A stretch of 64,000 bases of DNA, from contig JAUFOQ010000018.1 of the NCBI GenBank assembly GCA_040285855.1, forward strand, positions 434,001-498,000, given 5' to 3'. The translations under genes were made by a program, and so were the position numbers. The notes below the pieces were generated by a model. The model was given only the letters and a program-made list of their open reading frames with translations, had not been told where the DNA came from and searched no databases. This stretch comes from Eukaryota sp. GEM-RC1. Lineage: Eukaryota. Shown piece after piece: positions 5,840 to 59,227 of this stretch. Each line of letters opens with the position of its first letter. Positions within the stretch are counted from its first letter, which is position 1.

Positions 5840-8197
5840 TAGACCTGTGCAATCCACTCAGATAGTCGACTAAGTCGACTCGTAAACGCAGTCGAGTCGA
5901 GTCGACTCAAGTCATTTATTACATCACATCAAATCACACTACATGTGGTTTATAGATATTATCTTCCATTAAATAGTTCAATAAAGAATACTGAAACAAC
6001 ACCAATTGTCTTTCGTCTTTGTGGTTAAATAATTGAGTGAAGTTACTACATGTAGTACTCAATTTTATTTACACCAATTTCTTGTTTCTCCTCTTTGAAT
6101 GTCTTTACCTCCAACAAAGACCTGCAGAATTCTAACTGTACCAGGTGAAGAGATCACCATATCTTCTGATACTGAACCAGCACCGATAGTGCTATCTCCT
6201 CGTCAAACTTTCCAGGGGCATCGTCACTTCGTTTTACAAGAAGGATGGAAAGTGTGTAAGCTCTGCTCTAACGGCACTTCTTTTGCCTTAAAAACTTCAA
6301 CGACTGTCTTACGGTCTCATCTTAACGAGAAGCATCCCAACTGGGAGGGCCACTCACAACCAACTATTAAAACTGTAGCCCCAAAGATTAGGAGGAGTAC
6401 TACTAAATACATCAACCTTATGTTGGCGAAACTTGTACTGGAAAAATCTTTGTCTTTCAGTTTTGTGAACTCAAAAGCTCTAAAAGAGCTCCTGAACTTG
6501 CTAGCTCCTGGTTATAAGGTTCCCTCTAGATGGACACTTCAACGATCTCTCCATTCTGCCTTTTTGAGAAACAAAGCTGCGATTGCTAAGAAAGTTTCGA
6601 AAATTGCTGCACAATCCTTAACCACAGACCTGTGGACATCAAGATCTCAGGTACCATTTTTAGGTGTGACTGCACACTTTGTAGAGAGTGGAGAACTCAA
6701 AAGCATGGTCCTAGATGTCAAGATGCTTCCGTTTCCACACAATGACGAAGCTATTGCAATCGCAATTAAAGAAATATTGACGGAGTTTGACATTAAGAAG
6801 GTTTTGTGTGTAACCACTGATAACGCAAGAAACATGGTTAACGCGATGGAGTCACTACTTCCTTCCACATCCTCTTATCATGGGAGATGTATGGGACATG
6901 TTCTCAACATTTGTGTCAAAGCTGGTTTGGATTGCTTACAACCCTTTATTGCCAAAATACGAGAGTTTGTTGTTGACCTTCACCGAAGTCCCAAAGTTAG
7001 ACAAGAGTTCAGTGAGTTTTGTAAACGATTAGACTTTCACATTCCTAGTGAGATTGATTTGCAAAGTGGGGATGATGGTGATAACACAGAAGGAGACAAT
7101 AGCTCACAAGAAGATGGCGACAGAAGCTCCCAAGAACTTGCTGAAGATGATAAGCTCCCTGTGATTCCAAAAGGACTGATTCCATTAGATGTCGCTATTC
7201 GTTGGAACAGTTTGTACAGAATGATAAAGAGTTATCACAATTTTGGTTCTGTCATACCTTTGTTCCTTCGAAGTGTTGATAAGAACTTTTTAGCTCTTTC
7301 TCCAGATGAGGAATCTACTCTTAATCAATGCTTAGAACTGCTTAAACCGTTCTTCGCTGTCACTGAAGCTATTTCGGGAGAATCGTACCCCACCATGAGT
7401 TTTCTTTTAGCTGCTTTAACTCATTGTCTCGCTTACCTTTTGCCGAGAGACACAGATGAAACGTTCTTGTCTGAGGCCAAGCAACAAATGAAAGCCAAGT
7501 TTGATACTTATATTCCCTTCATGTACACATTTCCTGCTTTTGTGTGTGCAATCTTAGATCCTCGGTTCAAAAACCAGGTGGTTCCCCAATTAACAAACAA
7601 TTCTGGTTATTTTGAGCAATTAAAGGAGTTAATTAAGAGCCGCAAAACCGAAAAGGGTGTTCAAGAAGTCAGCGAACCAAGACTAGTACCATTTATTCCA
7701 ATTCCAATTCCATGCGGCGACGAACTTTCTCAATACTTAAGTGATCCACTGGCCGTCATAAGTACCAATCCGGTTCTTTGGTGGCATCAAAGTAAAGGCC
7801 GATATCCAATTCTCAGTGATTTGGCTGAAGAATTTTTGTCAATTCAGGCGACCTCTTCTCAAAAACAGGTGATATAGTTTCAAGGAAGCGTTGTTCTTTG
7901 AGTGACGAAAATATTAGAGCATCTGCATGTTTGCAGTCATGGAGCATCTTTCTTGGTGATGAATTTGTGTTATAGCTACTTCAGTACTTATAGACTTTAT
8001 TTGTGATGATATACTAATAGCTTTTCTTGTTTCTTGTTATAAAAATGTCCTGGATTTTGCCCGTTTTATAGACAAATGAATTTCAATGAGTGGTCTATAG
8101 TTACTATCGTTACTCAATAGTCGACTCGAGTCGACTCAAAGCCGAGTCGAGTCGACTCAGATAAATAATTAGTCGAGTCGAGTCGTGCACAGGTCTA
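5840..8197 (+). mobile_element. hAT DNA transposon (2358 bp)
   Basis: Perfect 12-bp TIR TAGACCTGTGCA/TGCACAGGTCTA. 8-bp TSD AATTATAT (5832-5839, 8198-8205). Subterminal GTCGA(C/G) repeats. Empty site GGCAATTATATTGGT in the other array units. Confidence 0.97.
6099..7975 (+). pseudogene. hAT transposase lacking the catalytic Glu segment
   Basis: BED finger CKLC..H..KH, TTDLWTS, TTDNARNM, RCMGH, RWNS, LDPRFK, WW..YP.LS.LA. After IQATS the (S)ER motif is missing and the C-terminus FSKTGDIVSRKRCSLSDENIRASACLQSW continues in another frame to TAG at 7975. Confidence 0.9.
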
Positions 8198-38823: not shown

Positions 38824-40207
38824 ATGAATCCATCATCTGATTTCAAACGGTTGGAGGAGCAGTCCTCAATAAGGATCCTGGGAATATTTGCTGCCCTGCT
38901 ATCTCACAGCTCCATCTTCAACTCTCTCAATGGGATTTTGATTCCTGTGTTTATCGATCTTTATTTTGATGGTAACTCACGAGCTTTAGGATTCATCACT
39001 GGTATCGGCTCCATCGTCCAAATGAGTGGGGTTGTGTCATCCCTCTTGTCTGATAGAGTTGAATTCCGTACTGGTATGTTTTATTCATCCGCTAACAATA
39101 GGAAGAAGACGCCCATTCATCTTTGCTGCTACTGTTCTGTCTTGCCTGGGAATATTTTCTCTCCTTATCGTTGAATTTCTGGACTCCGCATCTCTTCTAA
39201 CCAACCGTATCTTCATTCTTGCTGGATACTACATTGCTATGTGTGGACTTTCCATTACCTCACCCATTACGACTGCGTTTCTGGTGGATCTCATTCCCGA
39301 GTCACAAAGAGGTATGGGTAGTGGAGTGGTCAGTCTTTACGCAGTCCTTGGATCTGCGGCCGGGTTTGCCTTATTTGTGCTTGATCTTACCATGACCAAA
39401 GTATTCATTATCTACATTGTGCTGACCATCGCTGCCAATACCAGTACTCTACTTAATGCCCAGGAGACTCAATACAAACGAACTGCCGATCAGGAGCTCA
39501 GCATTACTTCCATTCTCACCCATCTCAAGTTTGATCCCAAGAAACATTTCAATTTTATACGAATCTGCTTAGTTCGCTTAATTTTCTACATCGCTTTAGG
39601 AGTCCAAAGCTATATCCAGTTCTTTCTACGTGACATGATTGGAGTGACCGATGCTCCAACATCCATGGCTGTTCTTGCTCTTTGTATGTTGGGTTTTGGA
39701 ATTTTCATTTCAATTCCGGCTGGAAAACTTTGTGATAAGCATTCCAAACAGCTTTTCATGGGTATCGGAATCTCCAGCCTTGGTATTGCCGTCATTTTAA
39801 TGATGTTTGCTTCTCAATTTTGGCATATGATAATTGTTGTATGTTTCTTCAGTACTGGTCAAATTGTCTATGGCACTGCCGAAAGTGCTTTGGCATGCAG
39901 TATTTTGCCATCTCAACGACAGTCTGGTTCCTATCTTTCTATTCTCTCCTTGCTTAATATGGTTGGTTTAAGTTTGGGGTCCGTAGTGCTAGGTAATGTG
40001 CTAAGTTTCTTCCCTGATGGTGTTCCTATTAAGGATCTTCCCCAACAGTACACTCGTCAAGGATATGTTTTTACTTGGGGAGTTGCTGTATTGTTTTTGT
40101 TGTTGTCAATTGTTGTCTTATCTGGTATGAAGATTGTATCTAAACCAAAGGTTTTAGATGTTAATATTTTAGAGTCTGAAGATGATGAGATTCCTCTCGT
40201 TTTATAG
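38824..40207 (+). CDS. MFS transporter, sucrose/H+ symporter (SUC/SLC45/GPH)-like; 2 exons (38824-39073, 39102-40207)
   Basis: Many hydrophobic TM segments. Splicing gives LSDRVEFRTGRRRPF, the family loop motif. Also DLIPESQRG and GKLCDK. Confidence 0.85.
39074..39101 (+). other. 28-nt spliceosomal intron
   Basis: GTATGTTTTATTCATCCGCTAACAATAG: GTATGT donor, GCTAAC branch site, AG acceptor. Removal restores the frame and the GRRRPF motif. Confidence 0.9.
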
Positions 40208-40771: not shown

Positions 40772-41702
40772 CTATTTTTTAAAAATTGACAATGATCCGT
40801 TATGTTCAATACTTACAAGACCATTCCTGTTCCTTGTGTGAGTAACTTTCTCAATAGCAGTTATGTGTTGACAAAGTTCTTGCAAATGTTTGCCATCTGA
40901 AACATTAAACAATTGAATAGTTCCACAAAGAGTCCCAATCGAAACGTGATTCGAATCAGCTGTAAAAGAAGATCCTAATACCAGAGCTCCAGATCGTATT
41001 TCAGGAGGAACCAGCCCTTGTGGAGGTACAGAGGGAAAAACGTGTTGAACATTGCCATTGAATGAGTCTACTAGCAAATGGTCAGATAGCTGGGTAGTTA
41101 GAAGAAGATATTTCCCATCTGGGGAAAATGACACGTCTTTAAGAGGACATCCTCGTGGATCAAGATTGTTGAAGTTTGAAAAAGGAACTGCTGGACTTCG
41201 TGAGTCAAAGAGGGATAAGTTCTTGCCAACAATAGAAGCGAAGACAAATCCTTGGAGATCATGTACAATTACAGGACTTGGACCAGGAGCCTTACCTGTG
41301 AAGCAAGGATCAGGGGTTTTGGGGTCGAACATTAGGTAGGTGGAATCTTGATAAGATGTGATGAATGTTTCGACAATAGGGTGTATTGACAAGCTAGTGG
41401 TGGGACTAGGAGTAGAGGGTTTATACGACCTTATAACGGTGTTGTCATAAGTTGATAACAACTTAATGTCGTTAGTTTTCGACGTAGTGTAGAGAACGCC
41501 TTCTTTATGTCGAGTGAAAGCAGCATTGCTAACACCAGTTGTATGGATAAACGAGTATTGTTGCAGGTCACCAGAAAGTAGACTGTATAAGGATACATTT
41601 CCAGAGGCAGTGACTGTTAGAAACAAATCTCCTGTTTCATGAACTGATAGAGAACGAATAAAACGATTTGAGGGAAGGATGAAAGGCAGTAACTCTGAAC
41701 AT
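40772..41702 (-). CDS. WDR82: WD40 protein, WDR82/Swd2-like (COMPASS/termination factor); one homopolymer frameshift
   Basis: IKLLSTYDNTVIRSY, SFSPDGKYLLLTT, LVDSFNG, SFTADSNHVSIG match WDR82. Start MFRVTAFH at 41702 joins IRSLSVHETGDLFLTV if one base of the A4 run at 41660-41663 is removed. Confidence 0.8.
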
Positions 41703-41734
41703 TTGAAACAATGAAACTACTACTGTGGATTTTC

Positions 41735-41857
41735 CAAGAAATGCATACTTTACACTTTCAAAGAAAGCTTCTTCATATACATCCCTTTTCTGCCGAAGCA
41801 CCACATTACGGCCTCCATTCAAGGTAACTTGAACTTCATCGGCCAATACATAGATAA
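41735..41857 (-). ncRNA. Candidate Fanzor omegaRNA scaffold
   Basis: Immediately 3' of the Fanzor stop codon. Hairpins: GGCC..TTCAAG-TTAC-CTTGAA..GGCC, TGC-TTCG-GCA (UUCG tetraloop), CTTTC-TTT-GAAAG. Boundaries are inferred. Confidence 0.6.
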
Positions 41858-43657
41858 TTAAGTACGTTGGAAAGCTTCAGGCCTAGTTCCAAATAAGTAA
41901 CCCTCTATAGCGATCTCAAGTTGATTTCTGGAGGCAGAAATATCTCTTGACCAAACCTGAGCACATGTTGGACATCGAAATATGGCGTGATTCACTCTTC
42001 TTACTCCATCAACTTCATGATATATCAACTGATGCCTCACTTTACAGCAGTTAGTTTTTGCGGAAGTGAAGTATTCATCGCCCATAATAACGGGAAAGAA
42101 TCTTTTGAGATATTCAAGGAATCCCTTTCTTGGAGACTTCACTTGCTGCCTAGATGGGCTAGCACCTCCTGTCCCAAACCAAACTCTGATTTGGCTTCCT
42201 TGTGCCATATTTTTCAAATTTTGAGCAAATAAATCAAATCGTTTCTGTTTTCTTATGAAGAAATCGAACTTGTTTCTCCGTAGGTTGGGTCTGTTCCCAT
42301 TTAATAAACACCGTTCTAGACTGTTCTTACTCATATTTTGATCAACAATAGTTTTCGATATCTCGAGCAGATACAGGTACATGTTCTGAACGGAATAGGT
42401 GTTCGACGTAGAGTTGCTCAAAGCACCAAACATAACAGTATTGATAGCCTTGGCTTTTGGTGCCAGTGTAATACCAGAGTCCAATAAATAGTCAGTGTTG
42501 GTTCCAATAGACCAACCACATAGGTTACTGTGGTTGGGATCAATTGCACACCATAACCAATCTTCATCAGGAGGAGGTTCGAAATCAGCTGTTCTCGCAC
42601 GTCGTCGTAACGGAGCCACTTTCTTCTGTAGGTTACACTTTCTCTTTCGAGACTTAACCTTGAAGTCTTCGGAGCCACTTGCCCTCCTTGACTCAAACTG
42701 CTCCTTGGTAGTACGGTTCCTTGTTTTTTTCGGCTTTGTGGAAAAATTATCCTCAAACTTACACCATCAGAGGCCAGGGTGTAAGTCTGGAAACGGGGGC
42801 GTTTCCTAAACGTTTTCAGTGGGTTACTTTTGAGAGTCCTTGAGAAGTTGAACTCTCTGAAGTGTTTCTCCACTTCCTGAGAGAATGATACAAACACTGG
42901 AGCATAGCTGGCCATTGGAACTAGAGCATGGCGGCGCATACAATCTGGCGCAGCATCCTCGAGAGCAGACAACAGGTTCAATCCAGCTGCGAATAGAAAT
43001 GAGGTGTTCGTTTCATTCAGGGCAACAGACCGTTCTGTCAATAGATTATTGAACAGGACAACATCCCCGACTAAGTGATTAAAGGTGGCCAGAGTTTGTT
43101 GGTGATGAGCATTCCACCATTGCTGCAGTGATGCTCCAGGTTGAGCACCACGTACGACAGCAGAAGCGTATCCCTTAGGGGTCGGGCAGTCGAGGAATAC
43201 AGCAGCGGTCCGGAAGAAGTTCAGCTTCCAACTGACTGGACCATCGGCCATCAGTTGTTGAAAAGCTTCAGACAACTGGCGTGACCTATCACTCAAGAGT
43301 TGTGAGTGACACCAGCGTGTCGGTTTGTGTCGGCCAAGAGGGGGGGAACGGCCAAATGGATACTGGCGGAAGACTCGACGACAGATGCAGTGCAGTGTAC
43401 ACTCCATTGTCGTTCTCAAAGGGGCGGTTTACTTTCGGCTCAGAGTGAGCAACGAACCCAAAGCACTGGTACCAGAAACGCTGGTCAGTCAACCAGCGTG
43501 CTAAGTGGGGGTGCTGGAGCACAAAGACCCGGGCCAGTAAAGTTGAGTGAACAGCAACGTCTCGAAGGTACCGAAATTGCCTGTTCATCACTGCCCGAGC
43601 TGGCGGGTCAAAAAACTTGGCAAGTGAACACGTGACCGTGGAGGTCGTGGTAGTCAT
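41858..43657 (-). CDS. Fanzor1 RNA-guided endonuclease (TnpB-like), ~599 aa after correcting two compensating homopolymer frameshifts
   Basis: N-terminal TVTCSL, SQLL..QL..F, SDGVSL, K/R-rich linker, RuvC-I CAIDP (D codon 42539-42541), VWFGTG, RuvC-II GDEYFTS (E 42074-42076), Cys residues NCC..CPTC, RuvC-III WSRDISASRN (D 41942-41944), C-terminal RPEAFQR. The 5' half is visibly more GC-rich than its flanks. Confidence 0.92.
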
Positions 43658-44193
43658 GTTCAAGAAATTTATGAAATATTGTGGATTTTCTTGTATTTCA
43701 ACTACATGTTACTTTCAGAAAAATATTTTACATCAATGATTAGAATCTTTTGGTAAATAGGTACAGTAGACTAGAGGTTGTTGTTCTCAGAATTGTTTGA
43801 ATGATCCCAATGGTATCGCTACAAGAATGAATAAGATTTACGATGGGTCATCTTAATCATCTTAATTCAAACTTTGACTTAGTGGCAACGTCTTTGTATA
43901 TGGTAGCTGCAGTATACAATCCCTGCTAGTGGAATTTGGGACTGACTGACTTTCTCCCCTTGACTGTGGGATGATTTTGTGGTGTTTCTCTCCTACTTTA
44001 CATTCATGAATCTCTTTCTCAACATCCTGAAATTCCTGACATCACTAACAGTGATAAAACGGACGACGACTCAAGAACACGAATGTTCTCAAAACACTAA
44101 GCAATAGTTTGTTGGTTTATTTATCATAAAAAGCTGTCGTCTGCTGTTAAAATTAAGATTATATTCAAGCAATATCTTCAAAAATAACTGGAA

Positions 44194-44869: not shown

Positions 44870-45433
44870 TAGGATTGTAATTTTGAGTCAAGCTGACTCA
44901 CTGAGCTTTGAGTCAGTCAGCTCGAGTCAGGCTCATTTGACTCATGAGTCAAGTCAAGCCTATGTTTCTATCCGTAAGTCAGCTCTACTCAAGTTTACTC
45001 TAATAAATAAAATTGAATACAATTCAAACGTATTCTATTACAATCACGTGTACATCGAATTAGTAGCTGATTTCTGTATAAATTCATTTGTCTTTCCTCA
45101 ATGTTTTCGTCAAACCCTATCATTATTGACGATGACTCCAGTAAAATTCGTTCTCCTGTTTGGAGTTCTCTGCTGCAAACCAAATTGTAACAAAGAAAGG
45201 AGCTAGACTATCTGACGATACTGCAAGGTGCTTACTGTGTTTACGTTCGTGGTACAAAACAGGTGTATTAAATTCAGATCAGTGAAAAACAGTAGGATTT
45301 GTGTTATGTTATGAAGTACAATAGAAAAAAGCATTCAAAATGAGTCAGCTCAAATCAGGTTGACTCATGAGTCAAGTCAAGCTTCAAATTGTAGGCTTGA
45401 CTCGACTTGACTCGGCTCATTTTAACAACCCTA
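44870..45433. mobile_element. Non-autonomous hAT element / MITE (564 bp)
   Basis: 8-bp TSD TCCTAGAC (44862-44869, 45434-45441). Imperfect TIR TAGGATTGT/ACAACCCTA. Subterminal TGAGTCA/TGACTCA repeat clusters. Confidence 0.9.
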
Positions 45434-48871: not shown

Positions 48872-49734
48872 CAGTTATGTATAAAAATTAGCGCACCGTT
48901 CACTACCGTAAGTTACGGTATACTCGGTATCCGTAAAATATGGCAAATGTAAAAAAGTTACGACAAATGTTACCGTAGTGAGAATGTACTATGTAATGAT
49001 TTTCATACCCTATAAATCGAAACATCAAAGCAGTACTGATCATTTTCATCAGATTTATAACAACTTTGCGACTATTTGTTGCCCTAGTACATGTACTTCT
49101 TGTAGATTGGACACATGACAAGAGCTCAAATACTTAGAAGCTGGTACAACATTATGATTTTTAACAATCAATCAAATGTGATAATCCTGTCAAGACAACT
49201 TCAAAAACCGTATTATGTTGATCATCGTCATCGTTTGAAGTGGAGCATTTTAAAACGTCAACTTTTGCTTCTCTACAATTTGAAGCTGGTGGAGATTGTG
49301 GAAGCGAATATACATGCAGGACATTCAGAAGAATTTTAACAATCCGATTTTCATTAGTGAAGGATCTTAATTTTTGTCCTTATTAAATATTTGCGGTTAA
49401 TTTTGAAAAAAAAACGGGGTTTATGCTCAGTCAGTGAAATAAATGCATTTGCAGAAGTTAATAACTAACAGACACTAACTAAAGTATCTGAACTATGATC
49501 CTTCTGCCCATCACCGAACAACTTTTTGTAGTTTCAATTATCCCTTTTGGCAAATCCTTTTATTTCACTGATTGATCATAAACATCGTTTTTTCAACACA
49601 TAATCTTCCGTATTCCGCTTATTCTCACTTCGTTACAAACTTGCGTAAAATACGGCAAGTGTAAAAATACGCAAATAATTTACGGCAAACTTGAAAAGTA
49701 CAGTATTTACGGCTACTATTTTTATACATCACTG
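48872..49734. mobile_element. hAT-like MITE (863 bp) containing a short LINE 3'-end insert (~49406-49523)
   Basis: 17-bp TIR CAGT(T/G)ATGTATAAAAAT with 1 mismatch. Degenerate 8-bp TSD GTTGAGTA/ATTGTGTA. Subterminal TACGG/CCGTA repeats. Confidence 0.8.
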
Positions 49735-49748
49735 ATTGTGTACAAATT

Positions 49749-51540
49749 TTTTTTGAATGAGTTTTTATGGAACAAAAACACTAAAATAAACACAAATACT
49801 AGAACTCAATATCATTAAAGCAACAATCATTGCCATAAAAACTCACATCAGCTTTTTTCTTCATAAAAAACACTGAGAGCTAATAGAGCTTTTGAAATCA
49901 TGATAGGAATTGTTTTAAATATTGTGAAAACAATACGATTCAACCAAAATTTGAAATCAAATTTCTTGTTCATTCTTTTTGACCACTTTCTCAAAATCAG
50001 AGAGAAAACAAAGAGCAACTCTACCAAGTCGACCATAAATTGAAATTGCAAACGGACATAATTTGTACTCAACATGTCTAATATGTTTGAGAGCAGTCAG
50101 TGGTTCATCATATTTGTTTCTCTTGTATTGTTCTGAAGAATTCAGTGGAGAAACTTCATTTTTGCATCCTTGAATGCACTTTTTTTGCAAACATCCACAG
50201 TAATCACATCAACAACGGTTAGTTCATCATTGACTGATGGAACTATGACATCAGCTTTTCTTTTACCAAAAGTCTTATCAGAATCACTATTTTTTGAATT
50301 ATTGATTTCCAATGATCTCAACAGTGGCTCAACGAAAGATTCGAATTTGTAGGACTTACACATGGCATGAATTTGATCTCTGACAGCATCATGAATACAA
50401 GTTCTATAAGTAATGAAACGATTACAACTCAAAAGGTGAGAAAAGGTAACTAATTTGCCACATTTGCATTGAAGATCATTGGGTAAATTAGAGGGCCACA
50501 AGAAACACCGAAGTCTGAATGTTGTAGTCCATTGATGATCATTCAACAACAAACCATCAATCTGTGGAATTTGGTTAATCAAAGCAACTGAAGAACTGTC
50601 CTTCAAATCGATTAAAAAATTTGCGGAAGCTGGATTTTTTTTCTTTGGCCAAGCCAAGTCGAATTTTAAAATCCAGACATTCAAAATGTTTTAAAAGGTG
50701 TTTTTGGAGTTTCTTAAGAGCAAATTTTAACGAGGTGACACATCGTTCTGGTATTTCACAAATATCTGCTGGAAAATAAGTTTGCCAGAGGTCAGGTGAA
50801 ATTAGCGACAATTCTGATCTCAAATTTACCAAGAAAAAACTACTTGTCGAAACAAGAAGATTTTCTTGACTTGGGTACCGTCTACAGAACTCAAAGACAA
50901 AATTCTTACCACCACCAATAAAAGCAGATTTGGTCCACCATTTAGACGAAGTAAAACCAATACCACCAAGATGAGGATCTGAGAAGATGTGATTGTTCAA
51001 AGCAGCAATATCCACTGATAACAAAAATGCAAGAAAGTCAGTACGAATTTTGTTAAAGCTTCTACAGAAGTTATAGGTAAGTACAGGGGCGAGAGAGTGA
51101 AGCAGATGGGTAACTTTTCCTGAATAACAAATTTTTAGCATAAAGAATTTGAGATGTTTTTCCAATTGCAATTCCTTAATTTGATCTAATTCTTTTCGCA
51201 TTGAATCCAAATATACATTCAGATCTTTAACAATGTTGTCATGTGAACCAAGATAGCAACCTAGAAATCTAAAGCTTGAAGATAAGTAGTTCACAGAGGG
51301 AACCTCTAAAGAATTAACAATTAAAGTTACAGGTACCTTGGCAATCAAAAAACATTTTTGCACATTGAATTGAAGTCCAATTGCATCGTACAAATCAGCA
51401 GCCTGATACGCAATAATACGAAGAGTTGACATAGGCGCAATACAAGAAATGTCATCCATATAAGCTACAATTTCTAAGTCTGCATGTTCTTCTTTGAGTT
51501 TTTTCAGGATTGGATGAATAGCCAAACAAAAAAAGAAGGG
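49749..51540 (-). mobile_element. 5'-truncated RLE non-LTR retrotransposon with poly(A) tail
   Basis: AYMDD, RFLG, CxC..HLLSC, IHDAVRD, RKAD, VDVITVD motifs. 14-bp TSD ATTGTGTACAAATT (49735-49748, 51541-51554). T-run on the plus strand at the 3' end. Confidence 0.9.
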
Positions 51541-52165
51541 ATTGTGTACAAATTATGTCCTTTTGCAATTTCAATTTATGGTCGACTTGGTAAAGATGCT
51601 TTTTGTTTTCTCTCTGAATTTGGGAAAGTTGTCAAAAATGAATGAACAAGAAATTTGATTTTCTGTTTTGGTTGAATCGTACTAGTATTGTTTTTACTAC
51701 TGTATATTTAAAACAATTCCGATTATCATTTCAATAGCTCTACTGTATTAGTTCTCAGTATTTTTCATGAAGAAAAAGCTGATGTGAGTTTTAATGGTAA
51801 TGATTGTTGCTCTAATAGTATTGAGTTTTTGCACTTATCTTACAGTTTTTTGTTCCATAAAGAAGATATTTCGAAAAAAAAGTATTGACTTGCAGTCATA
51901 TAGAAAAAAAAACTCCAAGAGAGTATTTGCTATTAATTATTAAGTCAATTTAAACTAACCAGGTTTATACTTTGTGGAAATTGGCTTTGTTGATATGATT
52001 GCTGGAAATTCCGGAATCACATTTGGTAATTTTTGTTGTAGACCCTGCTTGATTTACTTACTGGAAATCAATTCTTATAGTTTTGTATCTCTATCGATAG
52101 CAGTAGATTTCGAACTCTATATAATTAACAAAGGTTAAGCTCAGAAATTAACTGAAACAAATGAA

Positions 52166-57404: not shown

Positions 57405-59022
57405 ACTCGGCCACGCTGTCTCCCGAATTAATTGGTTGTTTTTATGAGAACTTAATCGGAAAACGATAATTTTATGTTATAAATTAACGAAATACAAACA
57501 ACTAGTACTTAAAAGATATTAAATGATCCACATCTACTCTTGAACTATCACGATACAATTTGTCCAGAATACGATTCAAATACTTTGGGAAACTTCTATA
57601 TAAGGAAAAAACAATGCGATTGCGCCAAATAGACTGATTAAAATTTTTCCTATGGTCACGGCACAACTTTGAAAAGGCATCAAAGAATTTTTCAGCAGCA
57701 AATCCAATATTACCAAGAATTGAAATAGCAAAAGGAATGAACTTAAAAGAAGAATACAAATTGGAATTCAGTTTGATCATTGTGTCAGAATATGTATTAT
57801 TTTTTCTTTTTTCAGCTTTGGATAAATGATTTTCAGTATCACTCGAAACTGAATTCAAATATACTTTAGCACTTAATCGGAATATTGTATTTTATTGATA
57901 TATTTTCATTCTGTTTTATCACTACTTGAAATCATTGATGGCTTTAAAACATGTAATACCTGTTGAATACGAATTATTCCCGAATAACGCTCGGCCACGC
58001 TGTCTTCCGAATTAATTGGTTGTTTTTATGAGAACTTAATCGGAATATTGTATTATATTATATTTTAACTTTGTTAGATTTCTACTTGAAATCATTGATG
58101 GCTTTAAAACATGTCAAACATGTTGAATACGAAATATGCCCGAATAACGCTCGGTCACGCTGTCTTCCGAATTAATTGGCTGTTTTTATGAGAACTTAAT
58201 CGGAATATTGTATTATATTATATTTTAATTTTGTTTGATTTCTACTTGAAATCATTGATGGCTTTAAAACATTGTAAAACATGTTGAATACGAATTATTC
58301 CCGAATAACGCTGGGCCACGCTTTCTTCCGAATTTAGTGGTTGTTTGGATGGGAACTTAATCGGAATATTGTATTATATTATATTTTAATTTTGTTTGAT
58401 TTCTACTTGAAATCATTGATGGCTTTAAAACATGTAAAACATGTTGAATACGAAATATGCCCGAATAACGCTCGGCCACGCTGTCTTCCGAATTTAGTGG
58501 TTGTTTGGATGGGAACTTAATCGGAATATTGTATTATATTATATTTTAATTTTGTTTGATTTCTACTTGAAATCATTGATGGCTTTAAAACATGTAAAAC
58601 ATGTTGAATACGAAATATGCCCGAATAACGCTCGGCCACGCTGTCTTCCGAATTAATTGGTTGTTTTTATGAGAACTTAATCGGAATATTGTATTATAGT
58701 ATATTTTAATTTTGTTTGATTTCTACTTGAAATCATTGATGGCTTTAAAACATGTAAAACATGTTGAATACGAAATATGCCCGAATAACGCTCGGCCACG
58801 CTGTCTTCCGAATTAATTGGTTGTTTTTATGAGAACTTAATCGGAATATTGTATTATATTATATTTTAATTTTGTTTGATTTCTACTTGAAATCATTGAT
58901 GGCTTTAAAACATTGTAAAACATGTTGAATACGAATTATTCCCGAATAACGCTCGGCCACGCTGTCTTCCGAATTTAGTGGTTGTTTGGATGGGAACTTA
59001 ATCGGAATATTGTTTTATATTA
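57405..59022 (-). repeat. 160/161-bp tandem array; each unit is upstream flank plus the first 15-16 nt of tRNA-Leu
   Basis: CTCGGCCACGCTGTC (rc GACAGCGTGGCCGAG) or a 1-2 mismatch variant at 57406, 57990, 58150, 58311, 58471, 58631, 58791, 58952. The first unit is interrupted by a LINE and the last is partial. Confidence 0.95.
57462..57870 (-). mobile_element. 5'-truncated RLE non-LTR insertion in the tRNA-upstream repeat
   Basis: RLE C-terminus (AEKRK, FIPFAISILG, WRNRIVF). 12-bp TSD ACTTAATCGGAA (57450-57461, 57871-57882). Empty site present in the other units. Confidence 0.9.
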
Positions 59023-59227
59023 TAATGTAACGAGATTGCAAACTACATACTACAATATGTATGTAGATACAGTAGTTTATTTTTATTTGTAGTTTATTTT
59101 TTGACTAATTATTTTTATTGACAACAACACTACTAGATAGAGCTGTCAAATGGCTAGCCTCAAGCCGTAAGCCGATGGACTTGAGAAAAGTCATATCCAA
59201 ATTTGGCTTGGCTTACTCAAATGACTC

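Follow-up and report, generated by a model that had tools for sequence, protein, structure and literature searches.

The locus described here raises the question of whether the hairpins found directly downstream of a Fanzor gene are the omegaRNA of that nuclease and, if they are, whether the guide that would be read from the adjoining flank is directed at the allele lacking the element or at a regulatory target in front of a WDR82-like host gene. The question was addressed in a stretch of 64,000 nucleotides from Eukaryota sp. GEM-RC1, called the window hereafter, in which the Fanzor gene, the predicted scaffold, the repeats and the WDR82-like gene are all laid out on the minus strand. The answer that we favour, and consider probable with some reserve, is that the hairpins form the omegaRNA-bearing end of a mobile Fanzor1 element, and that their guide matches the element-free site upstream of WDR82 since this copy probably inserted there.

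The Fanzor stop codon lies at 41860-41858, and the 123 nt past it (41735..41857) make up the predicted omegaRNA scaffold, which was studied by folding, shuffles and sliding windows. It begins with a 5' stem domain (41801..41853) made of a GGCC helix (arms 41844-41841 and 41813-41810) and a nested 7-bp inner hairpin (41834-41817), with TTCAAG at 41833 and CTTGAA at 41823 on the minus strand; this nested stem, described in the initial annotation, was confirmed with pair probabilities of 0.91-1.0 in all four foldings, and the domain alone gives z -2.41 (4/200 shuffles). The UUCG-capped hairpin of the same annotation (41791..41800) is present but weak, with 3 bp and a pair probability of 0.29-0.84 that varies with the ends chosen for folding. 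It is followed by a terminal stem-loop (41736..41787) of 13 bp, an internal loop and 6 bp, in which 18 of the 19 pairs have a probability of 0.95-1.0 and which alone gives z -5.27 against shuffles. The 13-bp stem (41787-41775/41748-41736) ends one base before the right copy of an 11-bp repeat. As for the CTTTC/GAAAG hairpin (41768-41754, 6 bp), folding does find it, but only as the tip of this 13+6-bp terminal stem, which had not been listed.

Most of the fold signal comes from the terminal stem-loop, as windows ending at 41755 give z -0.10 and 0.27, and the signal is biased to one strand, a 126-nt stretch giving z -4.15 (0/200 shuffles) on the minus strand vs. -1.33 (19/200) on the plus strand. 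Among 678 sliding control windows of 126 nt taken from 38.5-47 kb and 52-57 kb on both strands, with 16 shuffles each, 26 fell below z -3 and four of them below -4, and the grid window closest to the candidate ranked 12th with -3.57; the candidate fold is in the top 2% of its region but not unique by score. No family was matched in an Rfam search of the 41735-41857 stretch, and hairpin-pattern scans returned 65 + 2 loci, with a Fanzor match or a similar RNA at 0/67. A structured region directly 3' of the Fanzor ORF, at the right end, is a feature expected of an omegaRNA and is present here. The solved Fanzor1 RNAs open with a 7-bp hairpin and close their scaffold with a long stem, placed directly before a flank-derived guide of about 15 nt (PMC11423790, PMC10432273). 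The omegaRNA candidate put forward initially thus has the place and shape of a Fanzor1 omegaRNA, with a strand-biased fold, as far as these can be predicted from sequence.

The gene itself (41858..43657, minus strand) is spread over three frames in this copy, and its identity as Fanzor1 was established from domain, relatives, Foldseek and residues. Its ORF carries a Cas12f1-like TNB domain (E 6e-6), the only long sequence match is SpuFz1 (E 0.0065), and Foldseek with the P0001 model, of low confidence (pLDDT 52), placed SpuFz1 and PpFz1 at ranks 1-6 (E 3.5e-4 to 4.8e-3) and Fanzor2 at rank 20 (E 0.7). The family models, of 589-590 aa, match the Fanzor1 size of about 600 aa. The D-E-D triad is kept in the window copy (GDEYFTS..CC, RDIS) and in 6/6 long models, and the rearranged RuvC-II glutamate shortly before the zinc finger is present. 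The C-terminal signature reported for Fanzor1 is D-X(125,275)-[TS]-[TS]-XX-[C4 zinc finger]-X(5,50)-RD (PMC3627910); here, the D-to-TS spacing is 157 and the RD stands 5 residues past the last Cys, with a first Cys pair that reads TNCC, not CxxC. There is DPN at RuvC-I, where the Fanzor1 motif is DPG, and SDG in WED in place of TDG; both variants are common to the sister families, and DPG is present in more distant family members.

The best relatives of this Fanzor carry the labels Eukaryota sp. GEM-RC1, TZLM1-RC and TZLM3-RCL, which we infer from PMC11316075 to be genomes of the metamonad Skoliomonas. The gene is 97-100% identical to seven named gene models, one of which (P0009) is identical to it over the last 290 residues. 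In its cluster, 7/8 members stand under one genome label, and the long models agree at 96-99% identity across their final 294 residues; the eighth member failed to align and was left out. Seven near-identical gene models under one genome label point to a mobile family, and by its sequence the gene belongs to a Fanzor1 family that has evidently spread recently. Its sister Fanzor clusters have 10, 14, 17, 18 and 41 members. One sister family (P0002, P0016, P0017, P0020, P0021, P0023 and P0028) has an N-terminal CX2CX4HX4C zinc knuckle in 7/7 models checked, and knuckles of this type occur in Mutator-type transposases and gag proteins. An XPG-like nuclease is joined to Fanzor-family sequence in P0246 and P0248 of a sister genome, maybe through an annotation fusion, and P0248 carries both XPG and TNB domains. 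Our literature search, confined to the papers themselves, found no Fanzor paper on metamonads, nor one on Skoliomonas among the matches listed. These are, in that sense, new divergent and recently spread Fanzor1 families in a protist group for which no Fanzor paper was found, with many young copies per genome, which suits them well to a simple alignment from which the ends of the element, the TAM and the guide start could be read.

Whether such a family still makes an active enzyme depends on how its frame breaks are read. The first break of the window copy lies in a run of 7 C (43340..43346), through which 5/6 long family models read. The second (42734..42762), near a run of 5 T (42746-42742), is bridged in 6/6 long models by a short GT-AG gap, with different ends in one of them; the gap removes about 10 residues that directly follow the SDG motif. 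A further break lies in the WDR82-like gene, so that the window has three breaks in or near homopolymer runs, two of them in the Fanzor gene. The Skoliomonas assemblies are long-read (PMC11316075). An intron candidate of 28 nt, whose AG follows 5 nt after a CTAAC branch motif, is found at 39074-39101 in an MFS gene nearby, and a 29-nt intron at the second break is therefore not absurd, although the loss of residues present in the sister families and the differing ends in one model speak against it; we hold homopolymer errors to be about equally likely.

A third possibility, which we judge unlikely, is that the Fanzor family no longer makes a working nuclease, in which case the hairpins would be leftovers and the elements would spread as passive cargo. 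The need for a gap at the same spot in all six long models, at the cost of residues that the sister families keep, would fit this, together with the additional break of the window copy, the broken nucleoside-kinase gene upstream and the report of a Chlamydomonas Fanzor with long duplications that bound RNA and did not cut (PMC10530073). Yet all three breaks sit at homopolymer runs, including the one in the single-copy WDR82, and the D-E-D triad persists throughout the long models. The models of one sister family likewise fit long-read errors, given that 5/8 long models skip one spot and 3/8 are contiguous there (two further models are uninformative).

The broken gene upstream, a deoxynucleoside kinase gene at about 44830-44000 on the minus strand, has in-frame stops and frame changes, and its pieces give two weak Pfam dNK matches (E 0.011 and 0.042). 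The host flank between it and the Fanzor element also contains a weak C/D snoRNA-like match (43865-43785, minus strand; snR75, E = 1).

Coming back to the mobile element that we favour, its likely ends are set by an exact 11-bp direct repeat that brackets it and that went unnoticed in the initial annotation. The 11-mer is found at just two places in the 64 kb, in the same direction, the left copy at 43680..43690 and the right copy, which is likely the first part of the guide, at 41724..41734. The right copy begins one base past the terminal stem, and the left one lies 22 nt before the Fanzor ATG; the leader between this left copy and the ATG (43658..43679) would reach to the left end of the element. 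The 1,945 bp between the repeats consist of this 22-nt leader, the Fanzor gene and the structured tail, and nothing else. A repeat as long as 11 nt was obtained in 19/5,000 shuffles (a chance of about 0.4%) and in 15/4,896 random segment pairs, and it is the longest among 19 candidate boundary pairs with a repeat of at least 7 nt. G+C is 0.41-0.57 inside the element vs. 0.29-0.34 at 43700-43900. The 11-bp repeat is probably a target-site duplication, with the ends and the duplication pattern read from one DNA copy.

No terminal inverted repeats were detected, with 5/20 terminal bases matching and p 0.24-0.74 for four choices of left end; among the features sought for Helitron2 and Replitrons, a 7-nt inverted match at the ends was not significant and the left-end hairpin gave z -0.88. 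No transposase is encoded in the element or fused to Fanzor in the 19 relatives scanned, and neither a second copy nor an RNA-only copy is found in the 64-kb window. Protein-pattern scans for relatives confirmed 0/274 metagenome and 0/60 viral candidates, and none of 148 further representative proteins, checked for models running into the flanks of the element, was informative.

Several other accounts of the repeat and its contents were tried and set aside. The 11-mer is not a general promoter motif, as it has 4 one-mismatch matches vs. 3.2 expected, and a longer similarity around the repeats was not accepted (p 0.05-0.07 for the upstream 30-40 nt, 0.07 downstream, and 0.4-0.5 for longer stretches). 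The element as a spliced intron was rejected because GT/AG ends are lacking at any position within the repeat, and a TIR DNA transposon (MuDR, hAT or Mariner) as its carrier because no inverted repeats lie just inside the duplication. Mobilisation by the retroelements of the window was likewise rejected, with no shared ends and no poly(A) tail, a verdict that leaves room for other retroelements.

The window is rich in repeated DNA of other kinds. The part from 1 to 37000 is occupied by large units of about 7 kb that recur with up to 99% identity and contain reverse-transcriptase pieces, and one hAT transposase (6099-7877) lies within it. A reverse-transcriptase element at 49719-51908 has broken frames, a C-terminal motif that resembles restriction-like endonucleases and, unusually among retroelements, flanking inverted repeats of about 370 bp that are 80% identical. 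At 57868-59030 lies a tandem array whose unit measures about 160 bp.

For the ends of the element, its RNA, its TAM, and the cutting and homing that would follow, we propose the following course. The element would extend from 43679 to 41735 (1,945 bp), lacking both inverted repeats and a transposase; an enzyme whose gene lies elsewhere would move it, duplicating about 11 bp of target in the process. Its transcript would continue past the right end, and trimming would leave a scaffold of about 123 nt followed by some 15 nt of flank. As the first guide base is expected 0-3 nt from the terminal stem (41734-41731), the TAM would fall among the A-rich bases at and near the beginning of the left repeat; the predicted 15-nt guide is 41720..41734, with a start up to 3 nt later or, in a rival account, at 41723. 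Loaded on Fanzor from the same or another copy, the RNA would direct the cutting of an element-free allele or chromatid, which would then be repaired with the filled allele as template and so receive the element by homing, a role already proposed for such systems (PMC13565253). With a guide made of the duplication and the bases that follow it, the full target with a TAM in front would exist only at the empty site. The match to the empty allele suggested in the initial annotation accordingly holds for the predicted guide, given that a guide taken from the flank would match the element-free site.

How an active enzyme of this kind would spare its own insertion is a puzzle, and all 12 possible guide starts inside the 11-bp repeat were tabulated against both junctions of the filled site. 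With 0-3 repeat bases in the scaffold, the left junction offers the TAM of the empty site plus 8-11 seed bases, the 11 seed bases belonging to start 41734 and the overall match to the guide being 13/15 for the first two starts; with at least 5 repeat bases in the scaffold, a full 5-nt TAM and a perfect target are found together at the right junction. Whichever guide start is taken, an 11-bp duplication leaves one filled-site junction as a near or perfect self-target. SpuFz1 is reported to have minimal activity with 10-nt guides, levelling off near 13 (PMC10432273), and 11 seed bases at its own left junction therefore count against start 41734; an active enzyme would be safest with a guide start at about 41731. 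A silent enzyme, as in a dead family, would dissolve the puzzle altogether.

Keeping the duplication in the scaffold, as predicted for insect-virus Fanzor1 RNAs (PMC10711439), works for duplications of 2-4 bp and, by this tabulation, fails for 11 bp, since the right junction then becomes a perfect self-target. This bears on an account that we find rather unlikely, in which the 11-mer is a fixed terminal direct repeat or target motif and part of the scaffold, and the guide runs from 41723 over the WDR82 5' leader. Besides that viral precedent, it could draw on the fixed 6-nt start of the MCi-2 duplications (PMC3627910), on the short terminal direct repeats of Replitrons (PMC10288648) and on a UGUGG (41805-41801) whose possible pairing with the final 5 nt of the repeat stops exactly at the repeat's last base and has a probability of 0.25-0.62. 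This UGUGG, however, has a rival partner inside the scaffold, with a probability of about 0.9 when the flank is left out, and with at least 5 repeat bases in the scaffold (at least 4 for a 4-nt TAM) an active enzyme would cut its own element at the right junction. Fanzor1 TAMs are described as 4-5 nt long (PMC13565253). A literature search found no treatment of how Fanzors with duplications longer than the TAM spare their own junctions, and this avoidance is a testable question that the present element exposes.

The near match at the left junction could also be put to use, and it is conceivable, if quite improbable, that the left repeat works as an operator, where the complex binds the TAM and 8-11 seed bases, does not cut, and damps its own expression. 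Apart from the template of the guide itself, this junction is the only 11-nt seed match in the 64 kb (13/15 overall), and Fanzor1 is reported to need about 15 bp to open its active site (PMC11423790). The match nonetheless follows automatically from the duplication, with no need of selection, and by our own estimate chance in AT-rich DNA would suffice for the 2 additional matches. The Fanzor ATG stands 22 nt past the left repeat and the WDR82 ATG 21 nt past the right one. Extended to metamonad genomes, which would carry many Fanzor-only elements with long duplications and no inverted repeats, each insertion would build its own operator 22-33 nt before the Fanzor ATG and repress itself while still cutting the empty allele, with a promoter borrowed from the host; we consider this generalisation just as doubtful. 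If true, a eukaryotic transposon nuclease would be regulating itself with an RNA guide. Cas9, which represses itself with short guides, is a parallel case.

There remains the host gene at which the homing guide of our preferred explanation happens to point. This WDR82/Swd2-like gene (40772..41702, minus strand), recognised by PDB and profile searches, has a frame break in a run of 4 T (41663-41660), and its profile score is 132.8 with the frame of the ATG at 41702 vs. 129.8 for the other frame. The identity first assigned to it is borne out by its best PDB match, the S. pombe WD protein C824.04 (E 4e-16), and by an entry named COMPASS component SWD2 (E 4e-12), and its ATG indeed follows shortly after the 22-mer that borders the hairpins (41734-41713), 32 nt past its first base. 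Orthologues of WDR82 were sought in the sister genomes and not found.

The suggestion that this gene is a regulatory target found no support. It would mean that a domesticated, TldR-like Fanzor uses its guide to regulate the WDR82 promoter, which we regard as very improbable, even though the 32 nt ahead of the WDR82 ATG would be overlapped by the guide. Since a guide taken from the flank necessarily matches the DNA that adjoins the element, its match upstream of WDR82 says nothing on regulation. The Fanzor belongs, besides, to a recent dispersed family of seven gene models, on contigs of five different lengths, rather than to a fixed single gene, its catalytic triad is kept, and a guide from 41734 would find the filled site devoid of a TAM (1/5 bases in common). 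Neither is its closeness to an ATG special here, given that a neighbouring MITE, the one control case, is likewise placed and ends 20 nt before another host ATG. This MITE-like element (44870-45433), presumably hAT-like from the length of its 8-bp duplication, has a terminal inverted repeat of 14/20 and many palindromic repeats, lies between two divergent genes and has the best fold scores of the region (z -5.3). No other full-length guide target exists within the 64-kb window. WDR82 is probably a bystander, to which the guide points only because this copy landed upstream of it, and the link matters little unless the insertion changes WDR82 expression.

Compared with known systems, the homing element that we favour is probably of a known kind, an ordinary Fanzor1 omegaRNA at its insertion site, in a lineage newly covered. 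Closest in general plan is MCi-2 of Mucor circinelloides, also a multicopy Fanzor1 element with 11-12 bp duplications, no inverted repeats and no clear mobiliser, but 7-9 kb long, variable in its 5' parts and equipped with a partial Crypton transposase (PMC3627910), in contrast to the 1.9 kb and just 22-nt leader of the window element, whose duplication is seen in one copy. CRe-1/2/3 of Chlamydomonas (CrFNuc) are Fanzor1 elements too, with variable duplications of 7-19 bp (PMC3627910), an intact 3' end with structured RNA and a short or cut 5' end (PMC3627910, PMC10530073), as here; unlike them, the window element shows no evident Helitron2 ends, the inverted-repeat tests being not significant, and no TTTT directly before the left repeat. 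SpuFz1, GtFz1 and PpFz1 are the best fold matches and share with our candidate the 7-bp first hairpin, the long last stem and the flank-derived guide, which is predicted here (PMC10432273, PMC11423790), and the predicted scaffold of 123 nt is between SpuFz1 (75 nt) and GtFz1 (a 150-nt RNA) in length (PMC10432273, PMC11423790). Their DPG is replaced here by DPN and the first zinc-finger pair by adjacent Cys-Cys, and Spu-1 differs further by having inverted repeats of 30 nt and a duplication of 2 bp that falls within the TAM (PMC10432273, PMC11423790). Finally, the TldR repressors resemble the present case in that the predicted guide would overlap a promoter-proximal region, but they are described as nuclease-dead and domesticated (PMC13565253), whereas the window protein keeps its D-E-D triad and belongs to a dispersed mobile family.
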